Source: a virus
DNA length: 24,424 nt
UHGV virus genome: UHGV-0281096
Reading direction: 5' to 3' (one strand)
The notes beneath the pieces were generated by a model that was given only the letters and a program-made list of their open reading frames with translations, ran no database searches and was not told the origin of the DNA. Made by a program: the position numbers and the translations under genes. This document shows positions 2,433 to 24,424 of this stretch, one piece after another; the stretch's first letter is position 1; each line of letters starts with the position of its first letter.

Positions 2433-3052
2433 GACTCGAAAGCGTAGCTAAATTTCATTCGCCAAAAAGCCCGATGATGAGCGACTCACCACGGGCTACT
2501 GCTTCTGACTCTCTTTCCGGTACTGATGTGATGGCTGCTATGGGGATGGCGCAATCACAAGCCGGATTCGGAATGGCTGCATTCTGTGGTAAGCACGAAC
2601 TCAGCCAGAATGACAAACAAAAGGCTATCAACTATCTGATGCAATTTGCACACAAGGTATCGGGGAAATACCGTGGCGTGGCAAAGCTTGAAGGAAATAC
2701 TAAGGCAAAGGTACTGCAAGTGCTCGCAACATTCGCTTATGCGGATTATTGCCGTAGTGCCGCTACGCCGGGCGCAAGATGCAGAGATTGCCACGGTACA
2801 GGCCGTGCGGTAGATATAGCAAAAACAGAGCAGTGGGGGAGAGTTGTTGAGAAAGAGTGCGGAAGATGCAAAGGCGTCGGCTATTCCAGGATGCCAGCAA
2901 GCGCCGCATATCGCGCTGTAACGATGCTAATCCCAAACCTTACCCAACCCACCTGGTCACGCACTGTTAAGCCGCTGTATGACGCTCTGGTGGTGCAATG
3001 CCACAAAGAAGAGTCAATCGCAGACAACATTTTGAATGCGGTCACACGTTAG
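2429..3052 (+). CDS. Q: Late-gene antiterminator Q
   Basis: 207 aa; zinc-finger-like CRDCHGTG...CGRCKGVG; near-identical to lambda Q as recalled; ATGA overlap with ninI stop. Confidence 0.9.
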
Positions 3053-3094
3053 CAGCATGATTGCCACGGATGGCAACATATTAACGGCATGATA

Positions 3095-3130
3095 TTGACT
3101 TTTTGAATAAAGTTGGGTAAATTTGACATC
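3095..3130 (+). promoter_or_regulatory. pR'-like late promoter with qut region (-35 TTGACT 3095-3100, 17-nt spacer, -10 TAAATT 3118-3123)
   Basis: Sequence seen directly; position immediately downstream of Q and motif arrangement match lambda pR'/qut as recalled. Confidence 0.6.
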
Positions 3131-3159
3131 AACGATGGATAAATGCACTCGTTAAATAA

Positions 3160-3195
3160 AGCCCTGAGTTAATATCTCGGGGCTTTTTGCGTTTT
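3160..3195 (+). terminator. Rho-independent terminator about 35 nt downstream of the predicted pR' start
   Basis: Stem AGCCCTGAG (3160-3168) / CTCGGGGCT (3176-3184), one G-U pair, followed by TTTTTGCGTTTT. Confidence 0.55.
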
Positions 3196-3331
3196 AAGCA
3201 CGGCCTTTCTGAAAGCACATCAAACCAAATACCAGACAGACAAAAATAATCACCTTATCCGCTGTGGCTACGGTGCGGTGTGCTTTGCATAAAAGAAAAC
3301 CAGCGCAATGGCTGGCTTCGTGAAAGCGGGT

Positions 3332-15593: not shown

Positions 15594-16048
15594 TGATTAC
15601 ATTCAAACCAACGCGAAACATCGACCTGATAGAAGCAGTCGGAAATCACCCTGACATTATTGCCGGGAGCAACAACGGTGATGGATACGACTACAAGCCT
15701 GAATGCCGTTACTTTGAGGTTAACGTGCACGGTCAGTTTGGCGGCATTGTTTACTATCAGGAGATTCAGCCGCTTACATTCGATTGCCACGCCATGTACC
15801 TGCCAGAGGTTCGCGGATTCAGCAAGGAAATCGGGCTGGCGTTCTGGCGATACATTCTGACTAACACCACCGTTCAGTGCGTCACATCGTTCGCTGCACG
15901 CAAATTCCGCCACGGGCAGATGTACTGCGCAATGATTGGCCTTAAGCGTGTCGGAACCATCAAGAAATACTTCAAGGGCGTGGATGACGTGACGTTTTAC
16001 AGCGCCACACGTGAAGAACTAATCGACTTCCTGAATCACGGGAGATAG
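15593..16048 (+). CDS. gp14-like protein
   Basis: 151 aa directly after the tail needle; synteny with P22 gene 14. Confidence 0.75.
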   Translation: MITFKPTRNIDLIEAVGNHPDIIAGSNNGDGYDYKPECRYFEVNVHGQFGGIVYYQEIQPLTFDCHAMYLPEVRGFSKEIGLAFWRYILTNTTVQCVTSFAARKFRHGQMYCAMIGLKRVGTIKKYFKGVDDVTFYSATREELIDFLNHGR

Positions 16049-16750: not shown

Positions 16751-18100
16751 ATGGCTACGTGGCAACAGGGTATTAATTCTGGTGGTTTTCTGACTGGAAT
16801 TGGTGCGCAAAATGAGAATGCGCCAAAGGCAAGCGACATTAACGCAACGCTTGGTCTGATTCGCGAAAACAATGAACTGGCTCGATCAGGTGCAAATAAC
16901 GTTGGTCTGACCGCGTTACGTGGTCTGGCTGGAGTTGCTGATATTTACAATCAGGAACAGCAACAGAAAGCTATTAGTGCGTTCAATAAGGTTCACGCTG
17001 ATGCATGGGCTTCTGGTGATCCATCGGGACTATTTAAGTTTGCCCAGGAAAATCCAGCGTTTGTTGCACAGGCACAACAGGCGTTTTCCGGTCTTAATGA
17101 GCAGCAACGCAACGATATGGGCGATTTAGCCATGAGGGCTAACGTCGCTCTTTCTCAGGGACCGGAAGCCTACAGTAAATTCATTACTGACAACAAGGAC
17201 AGGTTAAATCGCGTGGGGGCGAATGCTGATTGGATGATTCAGACAGGTATCCAGAATCCAGAGCAGCTATCACACATGCTGACTACTATGTCTCTCGGTG
17301 CGCTTGGACCAGAAAAGGCGTTTGCTGTTCAGGACAAGATGGTTGGTCGCCAGCAGGAGCAGCAAAGAATTAACGAAACCATTCGCAATAATGACATGAC
17401 GAATGCGAGGGCTATTAGGGGGCAGGATCTTTCCTATAAGGCTCAAATGGCAAGACTGAATCACGACAAGTATGTGTTTAAGCAGTCACAGGCGGCCCTT
17501 GAAAGAGCAGGACAACTTCAGGATATGGATGTTTTGTCTCTTAACTCACAGATAGCAGCGACGGGAATTGATCCTCTAACCGGTAAAGCTGCAACGTCAG
17601 CCAGAATGTCTCAGGCTAAGAGATGGCTTGATGGCAACCATAATTACAACAATGCGTTGATTACTGGTGAGCGAGGGATAGAGAAAATAGATTCTTTGCT
17701 TGGTAAGAAGGAGCTTGAAGGTATCGGTCGCTTCGAAGGAAGAAATATAGATGGCTTCACAAGTGCTGAAGGGCTTGCAAACCGTAATGCGATAGAAGAA
17801 TTAAAGTCGGGTGCGTTTGTCCAGAACGTGCAGATTATGCGAGGTATGGGGAGCCTCTCCAATGCTGAAGGCCAAAAACTGGAAAACCTGATCGCGAAAC
17901 TCGATATAACACAGCCTGAAGAGGTCGTCAGAAAACAGTTATCTGAAATCCGATCGCAATATTCTGTATTTCAAAAGGTTGCAGCAAGGGAGGCTGAATC
18001 AATGGGATATAGTTCATCAGGTTATGACACATATGTTAGTGAGCGAAAATCAGGAAGCGACAGCAATAAGTCCGGTTTCTCGTCTTTATGGGGTGATTAA
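16751..18100 (+). CDS. Ejection protein gp20-like
   Basis: 449 aa; synteny and composition. Confidence 0.75.
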
Positions 18101-20268
18101 TGGCTAAAGCATGGAAAGATGTTATCGCTTCTCCACAGTATCAGGCGTTAACTGAAGAACAGAAAGCACAGGCTCAAGCGCAATATTTTGATGAGGTTGT
18201 TGCCCCTAAGGCTGGTGACAAATGGGCTGAAGCAAGAGATCAGTTTTATGCAGCATACCCTCCGCCTCAGCAGCAGAAAGAAGAACCATCATTGATGCAA
18301 CAAGCTGGTGATTGGCTCACAGGTGGTCAAAGTGCAGGGCAAATTGCAGAACAGGCTGGTCGTGGTCTGGTAAACATACCATTTGACGTATTGCAGGGTG
18401 GCGCAAGTCTGATTAATGCAATCAGCCAGGGGCTTGGCGGCCCCAAGGTTTTGGATGATGTTTATCGCCCTGCCGAGCGACCGACAGACCCTTACGCGCA
18501 AGCCGGTGAAACAATTGGTGGGTATCTCCTGCCAATTGGCACAGCGGCAAAAGCTGCTGGAGCGACAGCAAAGCTCGCTGGAGATATCGGTTCCGCCGGA
18601 AACATGATTGCAGGTTCTCTTGCTGATGCTGCAAATCAGGAGGGCGATTTTGCACAAAATGCTGCCATTAACGGTGGTATCAATATTGGTGCTCAGGGGA
18701 TACTTTCTGGGGCTGGAAGGATCTTAACCTCTAAATCACCTCAAGTTCTTGGTGGCGGGGCAATAAATTCCGCTGCTGATGTTTCGAAAATGGCAAAGTC
18801 TGGTACAGGAAGAGAGATTATTGCCAGACAGTCAGCTAATGTGTCAGACGAAATAGCAAAAGCAGCAGATACTGCTGGAATAGATATCAACGCATTAACT
18901 CCTGGCATGAGATCAGGTAGTCGTGGTCTTGCTCAGGCGGAGGGGATTCTGGCGTCAAAGCCCGGAATTACACAGGATGCACACACCAAAGCATTCAGTG
19001 AAATAGAGTCGAAATTTAACTCAGCATTGGATGAGTTTGGGGCTGAAGCAGGAACTGCATCAGAAAAAAGTGCAGCCATAAAACAAAGGGTTTTGGCAAG
19101 TATTGATAAAATGAAAAATTCAGAAAAGGCCGCATGGGATAGCGTCCGCTCCACGATGCCTGACGCAAAGGCCAGAATGTCAAACCTGAACGCTACAATT
19201 CAGGGTGATATTTTGGCCGGCATGCCGCTAACTCCTGAGATGAAACAATTCGCATCTGCTTATGCTAAAACTAGTAAAAAAGGAATCACGTTTGATGCCA
19301 TGAAGGCATGGCGAAGTAAACTTGCTGACGCAGAGCAGAAGTATATAAGGTCTGGTGAGGCAAATACGGCAAGGCGCATGGCTGAGCTTCGTGATGCAGC
19401 AACGGAAGATATGCGCATAATGGCTCAAAATGGCGGTTTTCTTGATGACTGGCAAAAAGCTAATGATCTGTCAAAAGCAAGATTTACAGCACAAGAACAG
19501 GCTGAAGCAGCGTTTGGTAGAGACCTTGCAACTGATCAGTTGGTAACTAATGGCTCTAAGGCGTTGCAGGGTTCAGCAAAAAGTGGAACAGGTCAGTTCC
19601 ATAAAATAATAAGCGCCCTACCTGAGTCGGAACGCGCGCCAGCAATTGCATCAATATTACAAGATGCGGTATCGCAAGGGGTACGCGGAGGTAAGTCTGA
19701 AGAGGCTGGAATTAAGCATATCGCGACTATTCTTACCCCACAAAACGTGAAGGCAATTAGTCGATATTCTCCAGAGCTTGGTAGGATTGCCAGGGGGTTT
19801 GGAGAACTTGCAAGAGCAGCAACAAAGCCACTTCGATATGTTGAACAAACAGGGCGCTCTATGCCAGCCATTAGCACTCTTGAGAATGGCCTTCATCCAG
19901 TTTTAGAGAGCGTATTGTCTGGCGCTTTTCCAACCGCTGGCGCTATCGCAGGGTTCTCTGGAGGAGGTGTTATTGGAGCAATAGTGGGTGGCGCTGCAGG
20001 TGGAGCAATTGATGCAATAGCAAAAGGATCGATAGCGAAATTATCCGCAACCAGAAGTGGTCGTTACGCTATTGAAAAGGCTGTTCAAGAGGCGACAAAG
20101 GCAGTTAAAGTTGGGGCAAGTGATGGCGCATTAGCGGCGGCGGAACGCAGATTTATGGCAAATAAGGCCGCCGTAAAAGCAATTCGCGATGCACTAGGAA
20201 ACGAAGAGTTCCAGCGTTTGTCGAGGGCTGGGATTGTGGCATCGCTAAGCGGAATGGCACAGGATTGA
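18100..20268 (+). CDS. Ejection protein gp16-like
   Basis: 722 aa; last of three ejection genes; Gly/Ala-rich C-terminal segment ([36 protein letters not shown]). Confidence 0.7.
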
Positions 20269-20285
20269 GGTGACGCCATGGATGG

Positions 20286-20735
20286 CTATTTTTTAAGGTA
20301 ATAATCATCAAAATCGCAAGAAGCGGATATCACAGAACTTGAATCCATAGAAAAAGACAGGGTTTCGCATGCCTTTCCGGCCTGATGATATGCATGGATA
20401 TCACCGGATACATATCCTCCTGTAGAAAACAACGATTTTTCACCGTTTTTTTCTACAAGAATGTGCTTATCTGAATCATTAATAAACCAAATGGAAATAG
20501 AGTGACTTTCGCCAAGGTCTGTTCTATTGAACACCTTAGGTTGGGTACCCTTGACAGCATTTTCGGCTCGCATAATCAGTTCAGCGCTTTTTTTGCTATT
20601 TTTTTGTTCTGTATAGATTTTGTCTGCCACAAAATAAACAATGGCAATGGCTAACAAAGATAGGGAAATCAGCAATGCCTTTTTAATCAATTTTTTGGCA
20701 TCCCTGTAAATCTCAACTGATAATTTTTCACTCAC
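20286..20735 (-). CDS. Membrane-anchored protein of unknown function (candidate superinfection-exclusion-type moron)
   Basis: Minus-strand ORF; likely start GTG at 20735 with AAGGAGG 5 nt upstream (track ATG 20789 has no RBS); single N-terminal TM segment ALLISLSLLAIAIVYFVADKIY; about 110-aa C-terminal domain with two Cys; locally AT-rich. Confidence 0.5.
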   Translation of the reverse strand: MSEKLSVEIYRDAKKLIKKALLISLSLLAIAIVYFVADKIYTEQKNSKKSAELIMRAENAVKGTQPKVFNRTDLGESHSISIWFINDSDKHILVEKNGEKSLFSTGGYVSGDIHAYHQAGKACETLSFSMDSSSVISASCDFDDYYLKK

Positions 20736-20810
20736 ACCAACCTCCTTAGTTTTGAGCAGGATACCAGATGATGTATGGAGAGGCATCATCTACTGGTGAT
20801 AGAACGATGA

Positions 20811-20839
20811 TTGCAGATTGATATTACGATCTGTACACT
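20811..20839 (+). promoter_or_regulatory. Candidate sigma70 promoter for the toxin-antitoxin-like operon
   Basis: TTGCAG - 17 nt - TACACT about 30 nt upstream of ATG 20872; moderate match only. Confidence 0.3.
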
Positions 20840-20871
20840 TCCAGTAGAACCGTGTGTTCTCTGGAGGCGAT

Positions 20872-21525
20872 ATGGACAACATCTACATAGCTAGTTTTGG
20901 TGATATAGACATTCGTTTTGTTAATGTCGACGATGATGTGTTTGTGTCTCAAGGGGATTTTGTCCGTGCAATGGAGTCGTGTCTCACTGATGATATGAAA
21001 CACATAGCTGGTATTTTCATCAGTGGTGGTGTGAGAATTGTTGGCGATTCTAGTGATAGCCGCTCTGCAATACTTGGCGACAGTCTAATTGGGCCAGCTA
21101 TTCATTTTCATGCGGTAGGCAATATTCTTACCTCATTGGTTGAAATGAGTAATGAGGAAAACCCCTCTTTAAGAGAGAGTTGTTATCGCATGAATAGCTT
21201 ATTGCAGTGGTACACGATAGCTTTATCCAAGGCCGATGAGTATTTTGGTCGTGATGTTGTTGACTTGCTATCTTCAGTAAAAAGGCGTCTTGATCGACTT
21301 AACGCTCCATATACCGTAAACGTCCTTCATGATGGGGGTGTTTGGGTTGCAACATGCGATGAGCTTGGATTAGTTACAGAAGCTCCAGATTATGAATCTC
21401 TTACTGAAAGAGTGTGGGATGTCGCTGGAGATATGCTGGTTGAGAATGGTATAGATCAAGACGTAGAAAGCCTGCGCTTTTCCTTCGTTCAGGAGCAGGT
21501 GTCTGATGACAGGATGGCGCTATAA
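20872..21525 (+). CDS. Two-domain protein: N-terminal Bro-N-like domain fused to C-terminal HicB-fold (UPF0150) antitoxin-like domain
   Basis: ATG 20872 with GGAGG upstream; N-terminus IASFGDIDIRFVNVDDDVFVSQGDFVRAM resembles Bro-N pattern; C-terminal YTVNVLHDGGVWVATCDELGLVTEAPDYESLTERVWDVAGDML fits HicB N-domain pattern. Confidence 0.6.
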   Translation: MDNIYIASFGDIDIRFVNVDDDVFVSQGDFVRAMESCLTDDMKHIAGIFISGGVRIVGDSSDSRSAILGDSLIGPAIHFHAVGNILTSLVEMSNEENPSLRESCYRMNSLLQWYTIALSKADEYFGRDVVDLLSSVKRRLDRLNAPYTVNVLHDGGVWVATCDELGLVTEAPDYESLTERVWDVAGDMLVENGIDQDVESLRFSFVQEQVSDDRMAL

Positions 21526-21528
21526 GAA

Positions 21529-21726
21529 ATGGGGCAGGGGCTTTATCCAGAACTGAAAGAGTTATTGTTGTCCTACAACTGTTATTTTGTGCGTCAGGGT
21601 AAAGGTAGCCATGAGATATGGCGAAGCCCTATCACGAAAAAGGCATTTAGCGTTCCATTTACTATAGTTTCAAGGCATACGGCTAACGCAATTCTTCGCC
21701 AGGCAGGAATAAACAAGAAAATTTAA
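21529..21726 (+). CDS. HicA-family toxin (predicted mRNA interferase)
   Basis: 65 aa; ELKELLLSYNCYFVRQGKGSHEIWRSPITKKAFSVP...ANAILRQAGI matches HicA/YcfA-like consensus including conserved GSH; starts 3 nt after upstream stop. Confidence 0.7.
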   Translation: MGQGLYPELKELLLSYNCYFVRQGKGSHEIWRSPITKKAFSVPFTIVSRHTANAILRQAGINKKI

Positions 21727-21750
21727 CCCACCGTCAGGTGGGTTTTTTTA
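21726..21750 (+). terminator. Rho-independent terminator after the HicA-like gene
   Basis: ACCCACC-GTCA-GGTGGGT followed by TTTTTTT. Confidence 0.65.
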
Positions 21751-21781
21751 TCTTCTCTACTTTAAAGATTAAGGAAATACC

Positions 21782-21967
21782 ATGACCATAGAAGAACGTC
21801 TGAACAACATTGAGTTGAATCAAACCCTGCTTGACCAGCGACTTTCAGATCTTGAGCTTAAAGATCTAGATGTGCAAATATCAGAAGCAGAAGCCAAGCT
21901 CTCCAGCTTAAACCACCGCAGGAAGCAAATCCGCGACAGAATTACTCGTGGACGCGGAGGCTGTTAA
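21782..21967 (+). CDS. Small coiled-coil protein, unknown function
   Basis: 61 aa; AAGGA RBS; heptad-like Leu spacing, basic C-terminus ending GRGGC. Confidence 0.4.
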   Translation: MTIEERLNNIELNQTLLDQRLSDLELKDLDVQISEAEAKLSSLNHRRKQIRDRITRGRGGC

Positions 21968-22044
21968 GGTGTGATGGTAATCCTTGCTCACTAAATTTAA
22001 GGATGCGAATCTTTCCGGCCATAGGAGTAATCATGATTTACCCA

Positions 22045-22581
22045 TCAAACAACCCACCAGTTTGCCTGATTGGATACCAGCCTTGCAGTTTTTATGGAAT
22101 TAATTATGCCATGCTCAAGAGCCTTGTTAGCATCCAAAATGGTCGAGTCTGCTATCAGGGATGCCCACCTAATATGGGTTCCGATGTCGATATTGAACGT
22201 CTCAACGAAGCGATCAAGATCGTTATCGAGGCATTTCCCGTACTCTCTCAATCTGGCATGGTCGGCGGCTGGGGAGGCAAAGCACCATAATAGAGGATGT
22301 AACAGGAATCTTGATAATGGGTTTGCGAAACGTTCTGAGCCAGCCAGGAAAACGATATTAGCTATGGATTCAACATTGCTTATGTTGTGAGTTCTAACGG
22401 TAACAGGGAGTGACTTAAGAAAGTTATACGCAGTAAAGCCAGCGGCAGTTTCCCCTCCCTGACTTGATATATGGATATTTAATTCAGTTGCGCCTTGAGA
22501 TAATGCGGTGAGACAGTGGTTCTGAAGTTGCCCAACAGTGGCAGTGTTAACGGGGCATAAGAAATGAATTGTGTGCAGCAT
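22045..22581 (-). CDS. ClpP-fold (S14-like) serine peptidase
   Basis: 178 aa; hand alignment to E. coli ClpP core: IHISSQGGETAAG vs YINSPGGVITAG, ESIANIVFLAG vs ASMGAFLLTAG (Ser), FLLHPL vs MIHQPL (His), ADSTILDANKALEHG vs RDRFLSAPEAVEYG (Asp); TAATG overlap with mnt stop. Confidence 0.7.
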   Translation of the reverse strand: MLHTIHFLCPVNTATVGQLQNHCLTALSQGATELNIHISSQGGETAAGFTAYNFLKSLPVTVRTHNISNVESIANIVFLAGSERFANPLSRFLLHPLLWCFASPAADHARLREYGKCLDNDLDRFVETFNIDIGTHIRWASLIADSTILDANKALEHGIINSIKTARLVSNQANWWVV

Positions 22582-22835
22582 TATTTATCATCCTTGCCAT
22601 AAATCTTTTTAAGTGTCTCAAACACAACGGCCTTGAACTGCTCTGCTTGCTGATCAGCCAAGCGTTCAGCTTCGTCTCGATAGCCTGCACTCGGTGATGG
22701 CTTTGAGAGAGCATCCTGAACGATTTGTAATAACTCAGAGTTCATTGACCTTCCGTTAGCCTCTGCTCTTAATTTCAATTTTTCTCTTACTTCCAAAGGC
22801 ATACGGAAGTTAAAGTGCGGATCGTCTCTAGCCAT
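22581..22835 (-). CDS. mnt: Mnt repressor (Arc/MetJ ribbon-helix-helix)
   Basis: 84 aa MARDDPHFNFRMPLEVREKLKLRAEANGRSMNSELLQIVQDAL... very close to P22 Mnt as recalled. Confidence 0.85.
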   Translation of the reverse strand: MARDDPHFNFRMPLEVREKLKLRAEANGRSMNSELLQIVQDALSKPSPSAGYRDEAERLADQQAEQFKAVVFETLKKIYGKDDK

Positions 22836-22858
22836 GCCATCACTCCAAGTTAGTATCT

Positions 22859-23116
22859 CTAACTTTCGTCTTTATTGTTGCTATACATGCATTTCAACTT
22901 CTCAACATCATGTTCAAGATCTATCAATCGTGATGCTATAGTTGCAAGGTCTAGTGCTTGAATGTGTTTATTTTTTTCGGTCCATGCTTCAAGTGCCGCG
23001 ACCATCTCAGCATTTAATGAACGAGAATTAGCCTCAGCCAGTTCAATAAGACGTTCCTTTATCTCTACAGGAAGCCTCAGATTCACTTGAGGGTTTTTGT
23101 ACTTACGATCAGACAT
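22859..23116 (-). CDS. Arc/Mnt-family RHH protein, paralog 2
   Basis: Start ATG 23116 (M3 of track ORF); PQVNLRLPVEIKERLIELAEANSRSLNAEMV is an RHH motif; divergent helical C-terminal region. Confidence 0.65.
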   Translation of the reverse strand: MSDRKYKNPQVNLRLPVEIKERLIELAEANSRSLNAEMVAALEAWTEKNKHIQALDLATIASRLIDLEHDVEKLKCMYSNNKDES

Positions 23117-23133
23117 CGGCACATCCTGAATAA

Positions 23134-23373
23134 TTATTTACCATACATGGTCTTTAGCGTCTCAAGTAGCGCCTCTTTGAATTTATCAGCTTCTTGGTTA
23201 GCGAATCCTTCAAGTGAGCGAGAGCCATCAAGATTATCAACATGTTTTTGAAGGATAAGCACGATCTCTGAGTTCATTGATCTGCCGTTTTTATCCGCTT
23301 CTTGCTGAATGCGTTTCTTTAAATAGTCTGGAATCCTAATCCCCAATGGACTGATATCTCTTGCACCTTTCAT
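23134..23373 (-). CDS. Chimeric RHH repressor: Arc-like N-terminus with Mnt-like C-terminus
   Basis: Start ATG 23373 with AGGAGG 5 nt upstream; N-terminus MKGARDISPLGIRIPDYLKKRIQQEADKNGRSMNSEIV parallels the arc product; C-terminus GFANQEADKFKEALLETLKTMYGK parallels Mnt C-terminus. Confidence 0.7.
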   Translation of the reverse strand: MKGARDISPLGIRIPDYLKKRIQQEADKNGRSMNSEIVLILQKHVDNLDGSRSLEGFANQEADKFKEALLETLKTMYGK

Positions 23374-23481
23374 TTCTCCTCCTGCACGCTGTGCATAGCT
23401 ACACAGTGTAGGCAAAAAAATTTTGACTTTAAATAAACACGGTGTAGTATTTAGTTATCACGGTGTAGCAAGTGAGGGGAA
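23374..23481. promoter_or_regulatory. Divergent Pant/Pmnt-like promoter-operator region
   Basis: TTGACT (23423-23428) - 16/17 nt - TAGTAT; direct repeats CACGGTGTAG at 23438-23447 and 23459-23468, degenerate copy CACAGTGTAG 23402-23411; imperfect palindrome CTGTGCATAGCTACACAG 23389-23406. Confidence 0.45.
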
Positions 23482-23622
23482 ATGAAAGTTAGAGACATCG
23501 CTCCATTAGGGATTCGTATCCCGCCAGAGATTAAAGAAAAATTGAAGGAAAAGGCTAAGGAGGAGGGCAGGTCTTTAAATTCAGAAATAGTGCAGCGTCT
23601 TATTCGCAGCCTAAAAAGTTGA
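23482..23622 (+). CDS. arc: Arc-like repressor (RHH)
   Basis: Not in ORF track (<60 aa). Hand translation [46 protein letters not shown]; GAGGGGA RBS; same family as P22 Arc, sequence diverged. Confidence 0.7.
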
Positions 23623-23651
23623 AGCCCCAACTGCGGGAACAGTCAGGGCTT
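23621..23651 (-). terminator. Hairpin in arc-ant spacer acting as minus-strand terminator (candidate 3' end of a sar-like antisense RNA)
   Basis: GAAGCCC (23621-23627) / GGGCTTC (23645-23651); on the minus strand followed by AACTTTTTAGG. Confidence 0.35.
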
Positions 23652-23684
23652 CGGTTGTCAGTAAATCCGTGGAGAAAAACCAAC

Positions 23685-24424
23685 ATGAATAGTATAGCAA
23701 TTTTAGAAGCAGTGAACACCTCTTACGTACCATTCAACGGTCAGCAAATTATCACCGCCATTGCTGCCTGAGTTGCATATGTTGCGATGAAGCCAATCGT
23801 TGAAAACCTTGGAATGAGCTGGTCAACGCAGCAAACAAAACTCATGAAGCAGATTAGCAAATTCAACTGTGTTCATATGAACATGGTTGCCGCTGATGGG
23901 AAGCTTCGTAAGCTACTCTGCCTTCCTTTGAAGAAGTTAAATGGATGGCTGTTCAGCATCAACCCTGAGAAAGTTCGTGCTGACATCCGTGATAAACTGA
24001 TTCAGTACCAGGAGGAATGCTTTAGCGTGCTGCATGACTACTGGACTAAAGGCTATGTAGTTAACCCACGCAAATCTAAAAAGGCGTTGCCGGGTAAAAT
24101 CACCACTGAACAGCAGGAAGCCATTAAACAACTCGTCATGAGTCGCGGTCAGTCTCTGCCAAAAGAAAAACAGGCTAAGGCGATGATCACCATGTGGTCG
24201 TCACTGAAATCCCATTTTGGATGTTCGTACAAAGAAATCAGTGAGGAGCAGTTTACAGAAGCACTGTCACTTGCAGCTCGAGTTCCGCTTGAAGGTGAGT
24301 TCATCGGCAAACAAGAGAAGAAAACCAACGAGCTTTCTGCAAAAGAAGCAAACAGCCTTGTATGGTTATGGGATTATGCCAACCGCTCACAGGCATTATT
24401 CCGCGAACTGTATCCGGCGCTAAA
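23685..24424 (+). pseudogene. ant: Antirepressor Ant, interrupted by in-frame TGA at codon 29 (23769-23771); runs off window end
   Basis: ATG 23685 with GGAG upstream; [28 protein letters not shown]-stop; same frame stays open for 217 more codons to window end; translation is P22 Ant-like. Confidence 0.7.

Follow-up and report, generated by a model that had tools for sequence, protein, structure and literature searches.

We analyzed a 24,424-nucleotide (nt) stretch of the virus genome UHGV-0281096 (the window), which comprises the late region and the ant moron of a P22-like Escherichia coli prophage. Our subject is its immI locus, in which three ribbon-helix-helix (RHH) repressor genes of the Mnt class, here called A, B, and mnt, lie in tandem and diverge from arc1 and the antirepressor gene ant. 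The immI locus of P22, with its Arc and Mnt repressors, is a textbook system of gene regulation and protein-DNA recognition and has been treated as one repressor pair per phage. A preliminary description of the window had placed three tandem minus-strand RHH genes at 22581-23373; we found open reading frames (ORFs) at exactly these limits. The repressor genes and their control region are as follows.

23134-23373, minus strand: A (RHH-A), Mnt class, 79 amino acids (aa), promoter-proximal; ATG preceded by GGAGGAG; recognition strand SPLGIRIP; N-terminal sequence MKGARDISPLGIRIP...
22859-23116, minus strand: B (RHH-B), Mnt class, 85 aa; AGGA 7 nt upstream of the ATG; recognition strand PQVNLRLP; N-terminal sequence MSDRKYKNPQVNLRLP...
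22581-22835, minus strand: P22-type mnt, 84 aa; N-terminal sequence MARDDPHFNFRMP...
23374-23481: divergent control region, 108 bp separating A from arc1
23399-23411: O1, CTACACAGTGTAG, a perfect 13-bp palindrome
23435-23447: O2, AAACACGGTGTAG
23456-23468: O3, TATCACGGTGTAG
23423-23450, plus strand: Pant-like promoter, TTGACT-16-TAGTAT
23430-23425 and 23407-23402: tentative leftward promoter, TTTAAA-17-TACACT, 8/12 matches, our own reading of the sequence
23482-23622, plus strand: arc1, Arc-class RHH protein of 46 aa without a C-terminal helix; recognition strand APLGIRIP

The gaps between the genes are 17 nt (A-B) and 23 nt (B-mnt), and each of the three has its own Shine-Dalgarno sequence; an alternative start of B, GTG at 23122, would yield 87 aa. 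All products passed the Pfam Arc family PF03869, whose gathering score is 20.4 bits (A, 32.9; B, 40.0; mnt, 92.7; arc1, 49.1 bits). The third gene, described earlier as canonical mnt, is indeed 78% identical to P22 Mnt overall, and it alone matches PF11423 (Repressor_Mnt; 46 bits versus a cutoff of 20.9), A and B giving no match. In profile-profile alignments (hhalign), A matched Mnt end to end through the C-domain (99.4%; E value, 1e-21; 77 columns), and B matched Mnt over 72 columns with a 6-residue gap (97.3%; E value, 2e-11). The best match in the Protein Data Bank (PDB) was 1MNT for both A (residues 4-74) and B, and B also matched Arc F10V. AlphaFold2 monomer models contained three helices in A (16-29, 33-50, and 54-78) and in B (17-29, 34-48, and 57-82), with pLDDT (predicted local distance difference test) values of 81 and 79, respectively; the RHH strand was not formed in either, as expected because the RHH fold is an obligate dimer. 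A Foldseek search of the PDB with the model of A returned RHH matches only (top, Arc, AmrZ, and CopG; probability, 0.9-0.99), with E values that are not significant for so short a protein. A, B, and mnt thus all encode full-length Mnt homologues with an RHH domain and a long C-terminal helix; the helix of A and B is probably an oligomerization helix, and A is probably a tetramer.

Pairwise alignment gave 36-39% aa identity among A, B, and mnt. Because of this level of identity we regard the three as old paralogues, and a recent tandem duplication was rejected on the same figures together with the 30-42% identity at third codon positions. The A family comprises about 20 clusters across the Enterobacterales, and the B family comprises more than 140, spanning E. 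coli, Xenorhabdus, and Shewanella. Across 26 homologues from E. coli to Shewanella, B is invariant in its N-terminal arm and strand (R-x-YK-x-PQVNLRLP), and the strand has the Q/N/R contact residues of P22 Arc (PQFNLRWP). Over codons 1-50, two substitutions in the RHH core (M14L and F22L) and two in the linker (VT to SA, residues 48-49) separate window mnt from P22 Mnt. The ratio of nonsynonymous to synonymous substitutions (dN/dS) in its N-domain is 0.03 relative to P22 (dS, 1.6) and 0.047 between two operator-less copies. The arc1 product also passes the NCBIfam model NF041551 (YlcI_YnfO_N; 33.2 bits versus a cutoff of 30), and its RefSeq name is "YlcI/YnfO family protein" rather than Arc; the model would presumably tie arc1 to cryptic prophage proteins of E. 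coli K-12 (DLP12, Qin).

The preliminary description had taken A for a chimera of an Arc N terminus and a Mnt C terminus. A does join a recognition strand like that of Arc to a C-terminal tail like that of Mnt: A and arc1 have the motif RDIxPLGIRIP...GRSxNSEIV in common, with 59% identity over 34 aa and an identical strand PLGIRIP. A recent fusion or arc-to-A gene conversion, however, was rejected, because third codon positions of A and arc1 match at only 35%, within the 20-42% range of all these paralogue pairs, and A aligns end to end with Mnt. The C-terminal part has a history of its own. Across the aligned A family, the C-terminal helix FAQQEADKFKEALLETLKTMYGKDEK hardly changes and the recognition strand is variable, and a Salmonella gene (P0017) is 88% identical to A at the nucleotide level in the C-domain (third positions, 17/23) and 48% in the N-domain (14/42). 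Furthermore, P22-type mnt exists with two different C-domains, and the C-terminal helix of window Mnt (QQAEQFKAVVFETLKKIYGK) is like that of A (QEADKFKEALLETLKTMYGK) and unlike that of P22. Mnt-class genes are therefore domain mosaics in which the C-terminal helix is a shuffled module.

Knight and Sauer reportedly engineered Arc/Mnt hybrids by swapping N termini (PNAS, 1989), in which the short N-terminal arm and strand are said to set operator specificity and the Mnt C-domain the oligomeric state. A resembles a natural counterpart of these hybrids in that it has the arc1 strand on a Mnt-type body, but it belongs to an old natural family and is not a recent fusion. Having one strand in common and a single operator motif, A and Arc1 may be read as the natural counterpart of the specificity-swap experiments.

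The window forms one end of a MEGAHIT-style metagenome contig (ENA ERZ27311463 k119_32663) that stops inside ant, and one relative (L010) is 100% identical to 19581-24424. A metagenome assembler might have fused a locus of the type found in phage CUS-3 with an A-type locus across their common B gene, since both locus types contain B. We give this virtually no credence: a look-up of protein A found the block of A, B, mnt, and a following ClpP-fold gene in six isolate assemblies, one of which is a complete chromosome (CP135227.1), and an assembly artifact was rejected because these isolates carry the same block. The prophages that hold these triples are P22-like and vary in their tailspikes and left flanks. 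The 793-bp blocks of the six isolates are mutually identical and differ from the window at 6 positions, and the A, B, and mnt ORFs are intact in all seven sequences (window plus six isolate assemblies). A truncated mnt in two other loci (L026 and L028; 54 aa as called) proved to be a gene-calling quirk, the ORF being intact.

An altered operator specificity had also been proposed for the region between A and arc1, and this held: 23374-23481 carries repeats of CACRGTGTAG and has neither the Mnt operator (Omnt) nor the Arc operator (Oarc) of P22. All CACRGTGTAG matches in the window lie within 23399-23468. O2 lies in the spacer and -10 region of the Pant-like promoter, O3 lies at its start site, and O1 covers the plausible leftward -10 element TACACT, the leftward promoter being our own reading. 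The locus resembles P22 immI in having a leftward Mnt-class gene, divergent arc, sar, and ant genes, a Pant-like promoter, and operators in the spacer and at the start site. It differs in several respects: P22 has one Mnt-class gene and the window has three; P22 has two unlike operators, whereas the window has three copies of CACRGTGTAG; the Mnt and Arc strands of P22 differ (PHFNFRMP versus PQFNLRWP), whereas A and Arc1 share one; and the P22-type mnt of the window has lost its promoter (Pmnt), Oarc, and Omnt but keeps the 5' untranslated region (UTR) and ribosome-binding site (RBS).

We classified about 30 loci by repressor, arc, and operator type. Among them, a promoter-proximal A always had arc1 as its neighbor and the O1, O2, and O3 sequences in the control region. 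B occupied this position only next to a different arc gene (arc2) and a different control region, which has a 60-bp core, GTAGGTATCTATTGACTATCAATGCGTACCTA.ATA.TATGTATGCGTACCACATACAA. For P22-type Mnt, the position was restricted to loci with P22 Arc, Oarc, and Omnt. The repressor arrangements seen were [Mnt], [B,Mnt], [A'], [A,B'], and [A,B,Mnt], primes denoting the deletion derivatives described below. The A-type operator set is conserved in all A-type loci, and the control region is the same with one, two, or three repressor genes. Because the recognition strands of A and Arc1 are identical, we infer that both read the same site (half-site GTGTAG). In keeping with this, the A type has one operator motif and one shared recognition strand, against two motifs and two strands in the P22 and B types. 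Judged from the sequences, A is the likely cognate maintenance repressor of the window immI type, and B that of the CUS-3 type, with predicted operators in both cases.

Several observations on these types may be added. E. coli, Klebsiella, and Morganella have almost the same B-type 60-bp core (L001, approximately 3010-3070; L031, approximately 1910-1970; L033, approximately 1912-1972), and the flanking arc proteins are strongly divergent where this core and the arm and strand of B are near-invariant. In Salmonella, a further locus (L046, 1739-2237) is a fourth immI type, with the Mnt-class strand PQINIRIS, a 57-aa arc product with the strand PKYPLRIP, and the palindrome TGGTATAACGGTTATACCA in the control region. 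In Xenorhabdus (L034, 1502-2261), an 82-aa A-like gene directly precedes a B-like gene whose product is 51% identical to window B, and this pair diverges from genes for an arc1-like protein and a Bro-N antirepressor; the A-like and arc1-like strands are TPLGVRIP and PPLGLRIE, and GTGTAG-type half-sites occur in the control region. Thus, the two-cassette order of A then B recurs in a distant genus. Taken together, the Mnt-type repressors of the locus and its relatives are predicted to fall into four or more natural specificity classes, every one having a dedicated arc and operators; the classes are reshuffled in the form of cassettes, and up to three are stacked in one locus.

The other two repressors of the window lack recognizable targets there. 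Upstream of window mnt, identity to P22 covers the 5' UTR and RBS and ends at ...CCAAGTTAGT, where Pmnt would begin; the gene therefore appears to be without its own promoter and operators. Operators of P22 Mnt, P22 Arc, and B were searched for with up to 3-6 mismatches allowed. The 24.4-kb window contained neither Omnt within 5/17 mismatches nor the half-site GTGGACC, and no convincing Oarc, the sole match at the loosest setting (6/21 mismatches) falling in a late gene (15626-15646). The B-type core or its submotif did not occur beyond chance in the window, nor at all near immI. Likewise, no Omnt was found within 4 mismatches in the complete CUS-3 genome, in which a P22-type mnt also sits behind B. 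In the part of the contig scanned, a cognate operator over Pant is therefore found, by inference, for A and for neither B nor P22-type Mnt.

These searches went against the earlier suggestion that the additional genes provide extra layers of control over the phage's own ant, since no B-type or P22-Mnt-type operator was found anywhere in the window. In one form of that idea, A, B, and Mnt would all bind 23374-23481 at degenerate or overlapping sites and tune both Pant and the leftward promoter. It draws on CACGGTG, the central core of P22 Omnt (CCACGGTGG), which is present in O2 and O3, and on the fact that one transcript beside these sites would make all three proteins; because of the common core, weak cis binding by Mnt at O2 and O3 is possible. 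O2 and O3, however, match Omnt at only 9/17 positions and differ at the outer ones, and the A-type control regions are unchanged whatever the number of repressor genes, so that the operators did not covary with the extra genes. With the half-site and B-type core missing as well, we regard layered control in cis as improbable.

A different use of the extra proteins would be the pairing of A, B, and Mnt dimers into heterotetramers that bridge unlike half-sites or sequester each other. The A-like C-terminal helix of window Mnt, in place of that of P22, and the shuffling of the C-domain as a module would suit such mixing. The window, however, has no hybrid operator (an A half-site beside a Mnt or B half-site), B has another, heptad-type sequence in its C-helix, with a 6-residue gap when aligned with Mnt, and the idea is purely speculative; we consider it very improbable. 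What we propose with considerable confidence is that the window carries three heterospecific Mnt-class cassettes, of which only A is cognate in cis.

A B-mnt tandem is also present in the ant morons of the CUS-3/UTI89 type, where it is 94% identical at the DNA level to window 22600-23143. The tandem is common, the exact B protein being indexed in 1395 blocks of the collection, and two "mnt" genes are annotated in the GenBank record of CUS-3. There, B lies next to the promoter with its own control region and arc2, whereas the window adds A, A's operators, and arc1 in front. CUS-3 has been stated to lack arc (PMC2629481). Between its control region and ant (L001, 3081-3421, the "bsq2" boundary sequence), we noted an unannotated 46-aa arc2 (3081-3221) and a 67-aa Cys-rich ORF. 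Retention of a Mnt-class gene in the absence of a matching arc/ant module has precedents in the orphan mnt genes of phages L, ST64T, and ST104; those of L and ST64T have been described, with the question raised of whether such genes are vestiges or serve a new purpose (PMC8022706; PMC2629481). The window differs from these in that its operator-less repressors number two and lie behind a complete, apparently working immI of another specificity.

For these two repressors, we consider an action in trans. Under this interpretation, A would control its own ant, and B and Mnt would repress the ant genes of other immI types; including the mechanism that follows, we rate it as having a nearly even chance of being right. 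In the lysogen, A, probably as a tetramer, would keep Pant off and autoregulate at O1, Arc1 would give early shutoff on the same sites, and sar would act as in P22. All three repressor genes would be read from the promoter upstream of A, since there is no room for promoters of their own. B and P22-type Mnt made by the prophage would then repress Pant of superinfecting or coresident phages of the CUS-3 and P22 types, and the main repressor of the prophage would be protected from foreign antirepressor.

All three immI types circulate together in E. coli. Control regions among 5426 RefSeq complete E. coli genomes numbered 224 of the P22 type, 111 of the B type, and 19 of the A type; the rarest type would therefore carry the repressors of the two commonest. 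This leads to a more far-reaching idea, to which we subscribe only tentatively: a heterotypic anti-antirepressor immunity built of exchangeable in-frame cassettes, by which a prophage of the rarest type expresses the repressors of two commoner types and blocks their Ant. The intact ORFs, the low dN/dS, and the recurrence of A then B in Xenorhabdus favor an action in trans. A selective logic is supplied by the Gifsy/Fels prophages of Salmonella, in which, according to Lemire et al. (2011) as cited in PMC7380047, antirepressor crosstalk in trans inactivates the repressors of other prophages. There, antirepressors act across prophages; here we envisage the converse, repressors silencing the antirepressor genes of others.

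Other considerations weigh against an action in trans. The triple arrangement, at at least 80% coverage, was found in none of the 5426 genomes and in none of 50,697 phage records, and all known triples are essentially one haplotype and therefore reflect one origin. The distal genes are dispensable, as single [A'] and double [A,B'] derivatives exist. The purifying selection could predate import, having acted in cognate contexts that were followed by recent recombination. Moreover, operators were assigned from co-occurrence and recognition-strand identity, the operator scan covered 24.4 kb of late-region DNA from the approximately 40.8-kb contig, and O2 and O3 contain the Omnt core at 9/17 matching positions.

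Some of the same facts would fit the view that B and mnt are passengers left behind after successive replacements of the repressor/operators/arc segment, still transcribed but targetless and in the course of being deleted. The rarity of the triple, its single haplotype, the nested arrangements, and the in-frame deletion derivatives [A'] and [A,B'] with junctions in a shared 3' motif all accord with it, as does the rapid flux of the ant moron described by Villafane et al. in 2008, with ten types in sixteen genomes (PMC2629481). Besides, codon 29 of the window ant (23770-23772) is TGA, where all relatives have GGA (Gly), and the region therefore tolerates decay. On the other hand, neither B nor mnt has a frameshift or stop in any of the about 30 loci, dN/dS in the Mnt DNA-binding domain is as low as 0.03-0.05, B is followed by an intact P22-type mnt in every sampled E. 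coli locus of the CUS-3 type (about 15), and the tandem of A-like and B-like genes occurs also in Xenorhabdus. We think it rather unlikely that the two genes are relics.

If the distal repressors do work in trans, prophages would defend lysogeny against foreign antirepressors by collecting repressors, a directly testable interphage conflict; and if the stack does confer immunity, immI would be a multispecificity, evolvable immunity locus and not a single-phage switch. Even if B and mnt are relics, the series [Mnt], [B,Mnt], [A,B,Mnt], [A,B'], and [A'] is a natural record of regulatory module replacement. Our literature search yielded no description of a three-gene Mnt stack, of the pairing of repressor, arc, and operator types, of in-frame cassette junctions, or of repressor stocking by prophages against foreign antirepressors.

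The junctions suggest how the cassettes are exchanged. The 3' ends of A, B, and mnt share a coding motif for ETLK-x-MY (repeat D1; E-T/K-L-K-x-M/I-Y). The single A' gene of phage PhiR12_1 follows A up to TATGGTAA and then continues with the last codons of the mnt/clpP junction, and the B' gene of E. coli MS 196-1 follows B up to TTGAGA and then continues with the A' tail and clpP. Because the junctions fall in the shared 3' motif, cassettes appear to be gained and lost by in-frame recombination at this motif, with the clpP-fold gene remaining attached. In the same two sources (L002, E. coli MS 196-1; L003, phage PhiR12_1), the module clpP-RHH-arc1-ant lies between tail genes L and K of lambda-like siphoviruses, indicating that the ant moron is not confined to P22-like podoviruses.

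The remaining features of the moron in the window are the following.

23617-23684, minus strand: sar antisense RNA, Rfam RF00262, 95.6 bits versus a gathering score of 43, full length (1-68)
23686-24424, plus strand: ant, P22-like antirepressor gene, cut by the contig end
22045-22581, minus strand: ClpP-fold gene, 178 aa, last gene of the repressor operon; PF00574, 44.4 bits

A terminator-like hairpin of sar is found at 23652-23621. In the relatives L021-L029, Ant is intact (300-311 aa) with P22_AR_N and P22_AR_C domains; because of the TGA codon, the window phage probably makes no full-length antirepressor, and reinitiation at Met35 (23788) is possible. The ATG of the ClpP-fold gene overlaps the mnt stop by 1 nt, and the gene is apparently translationally coupled to mnt. 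Its product fell under all NCBIfam cutoffs and gave no match in PADLOC; in our own reading, two residues of the catalytic triad, Ser and His, seem to be retained. The gene travels with the RHH cassettes, including into lambda-like tail gene clusters, and may be a prophage-expressed moron. We saw no convincing intrinsic terminator downstream of it.

Beside clpP, some relatives carry a second, unrelated antirepressor module (L006, 4886-6191; also L008, L021, and L024), which is absent from the window. It comprises a gene for a 106-aa RHH protein and, in divergent orientation, genes for a 57/62-aa Arc and a Bro-N/P22_AR_C Ant, with unrelated operators of its own, so that these phages have two ant modules in tandem.

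The window further contains genes for terminase, a 732-aa portal, scaffold, coat, and a 722-aa gp16-like injection protein (18100-20268), and the immI module lies downstream of the last in the P22-like late operon; in relatives, a tailspike gene (Head_binding domain) directly follows ant. Between gp16 and the immI operon, 20854-21726 (plus strand) encodes a HicB-like 223-aa ORF and then a 65-aa HicA-like toxin ORF (...GKGSHEIW..., our own reading). In L010, the identical locus, the HicB-like ORF was called shorter, at 217 aa, and bears PF08972/DUF1902. The same slot holds sieA, SocA/Panacea, P63C, and other cargo in relatives.

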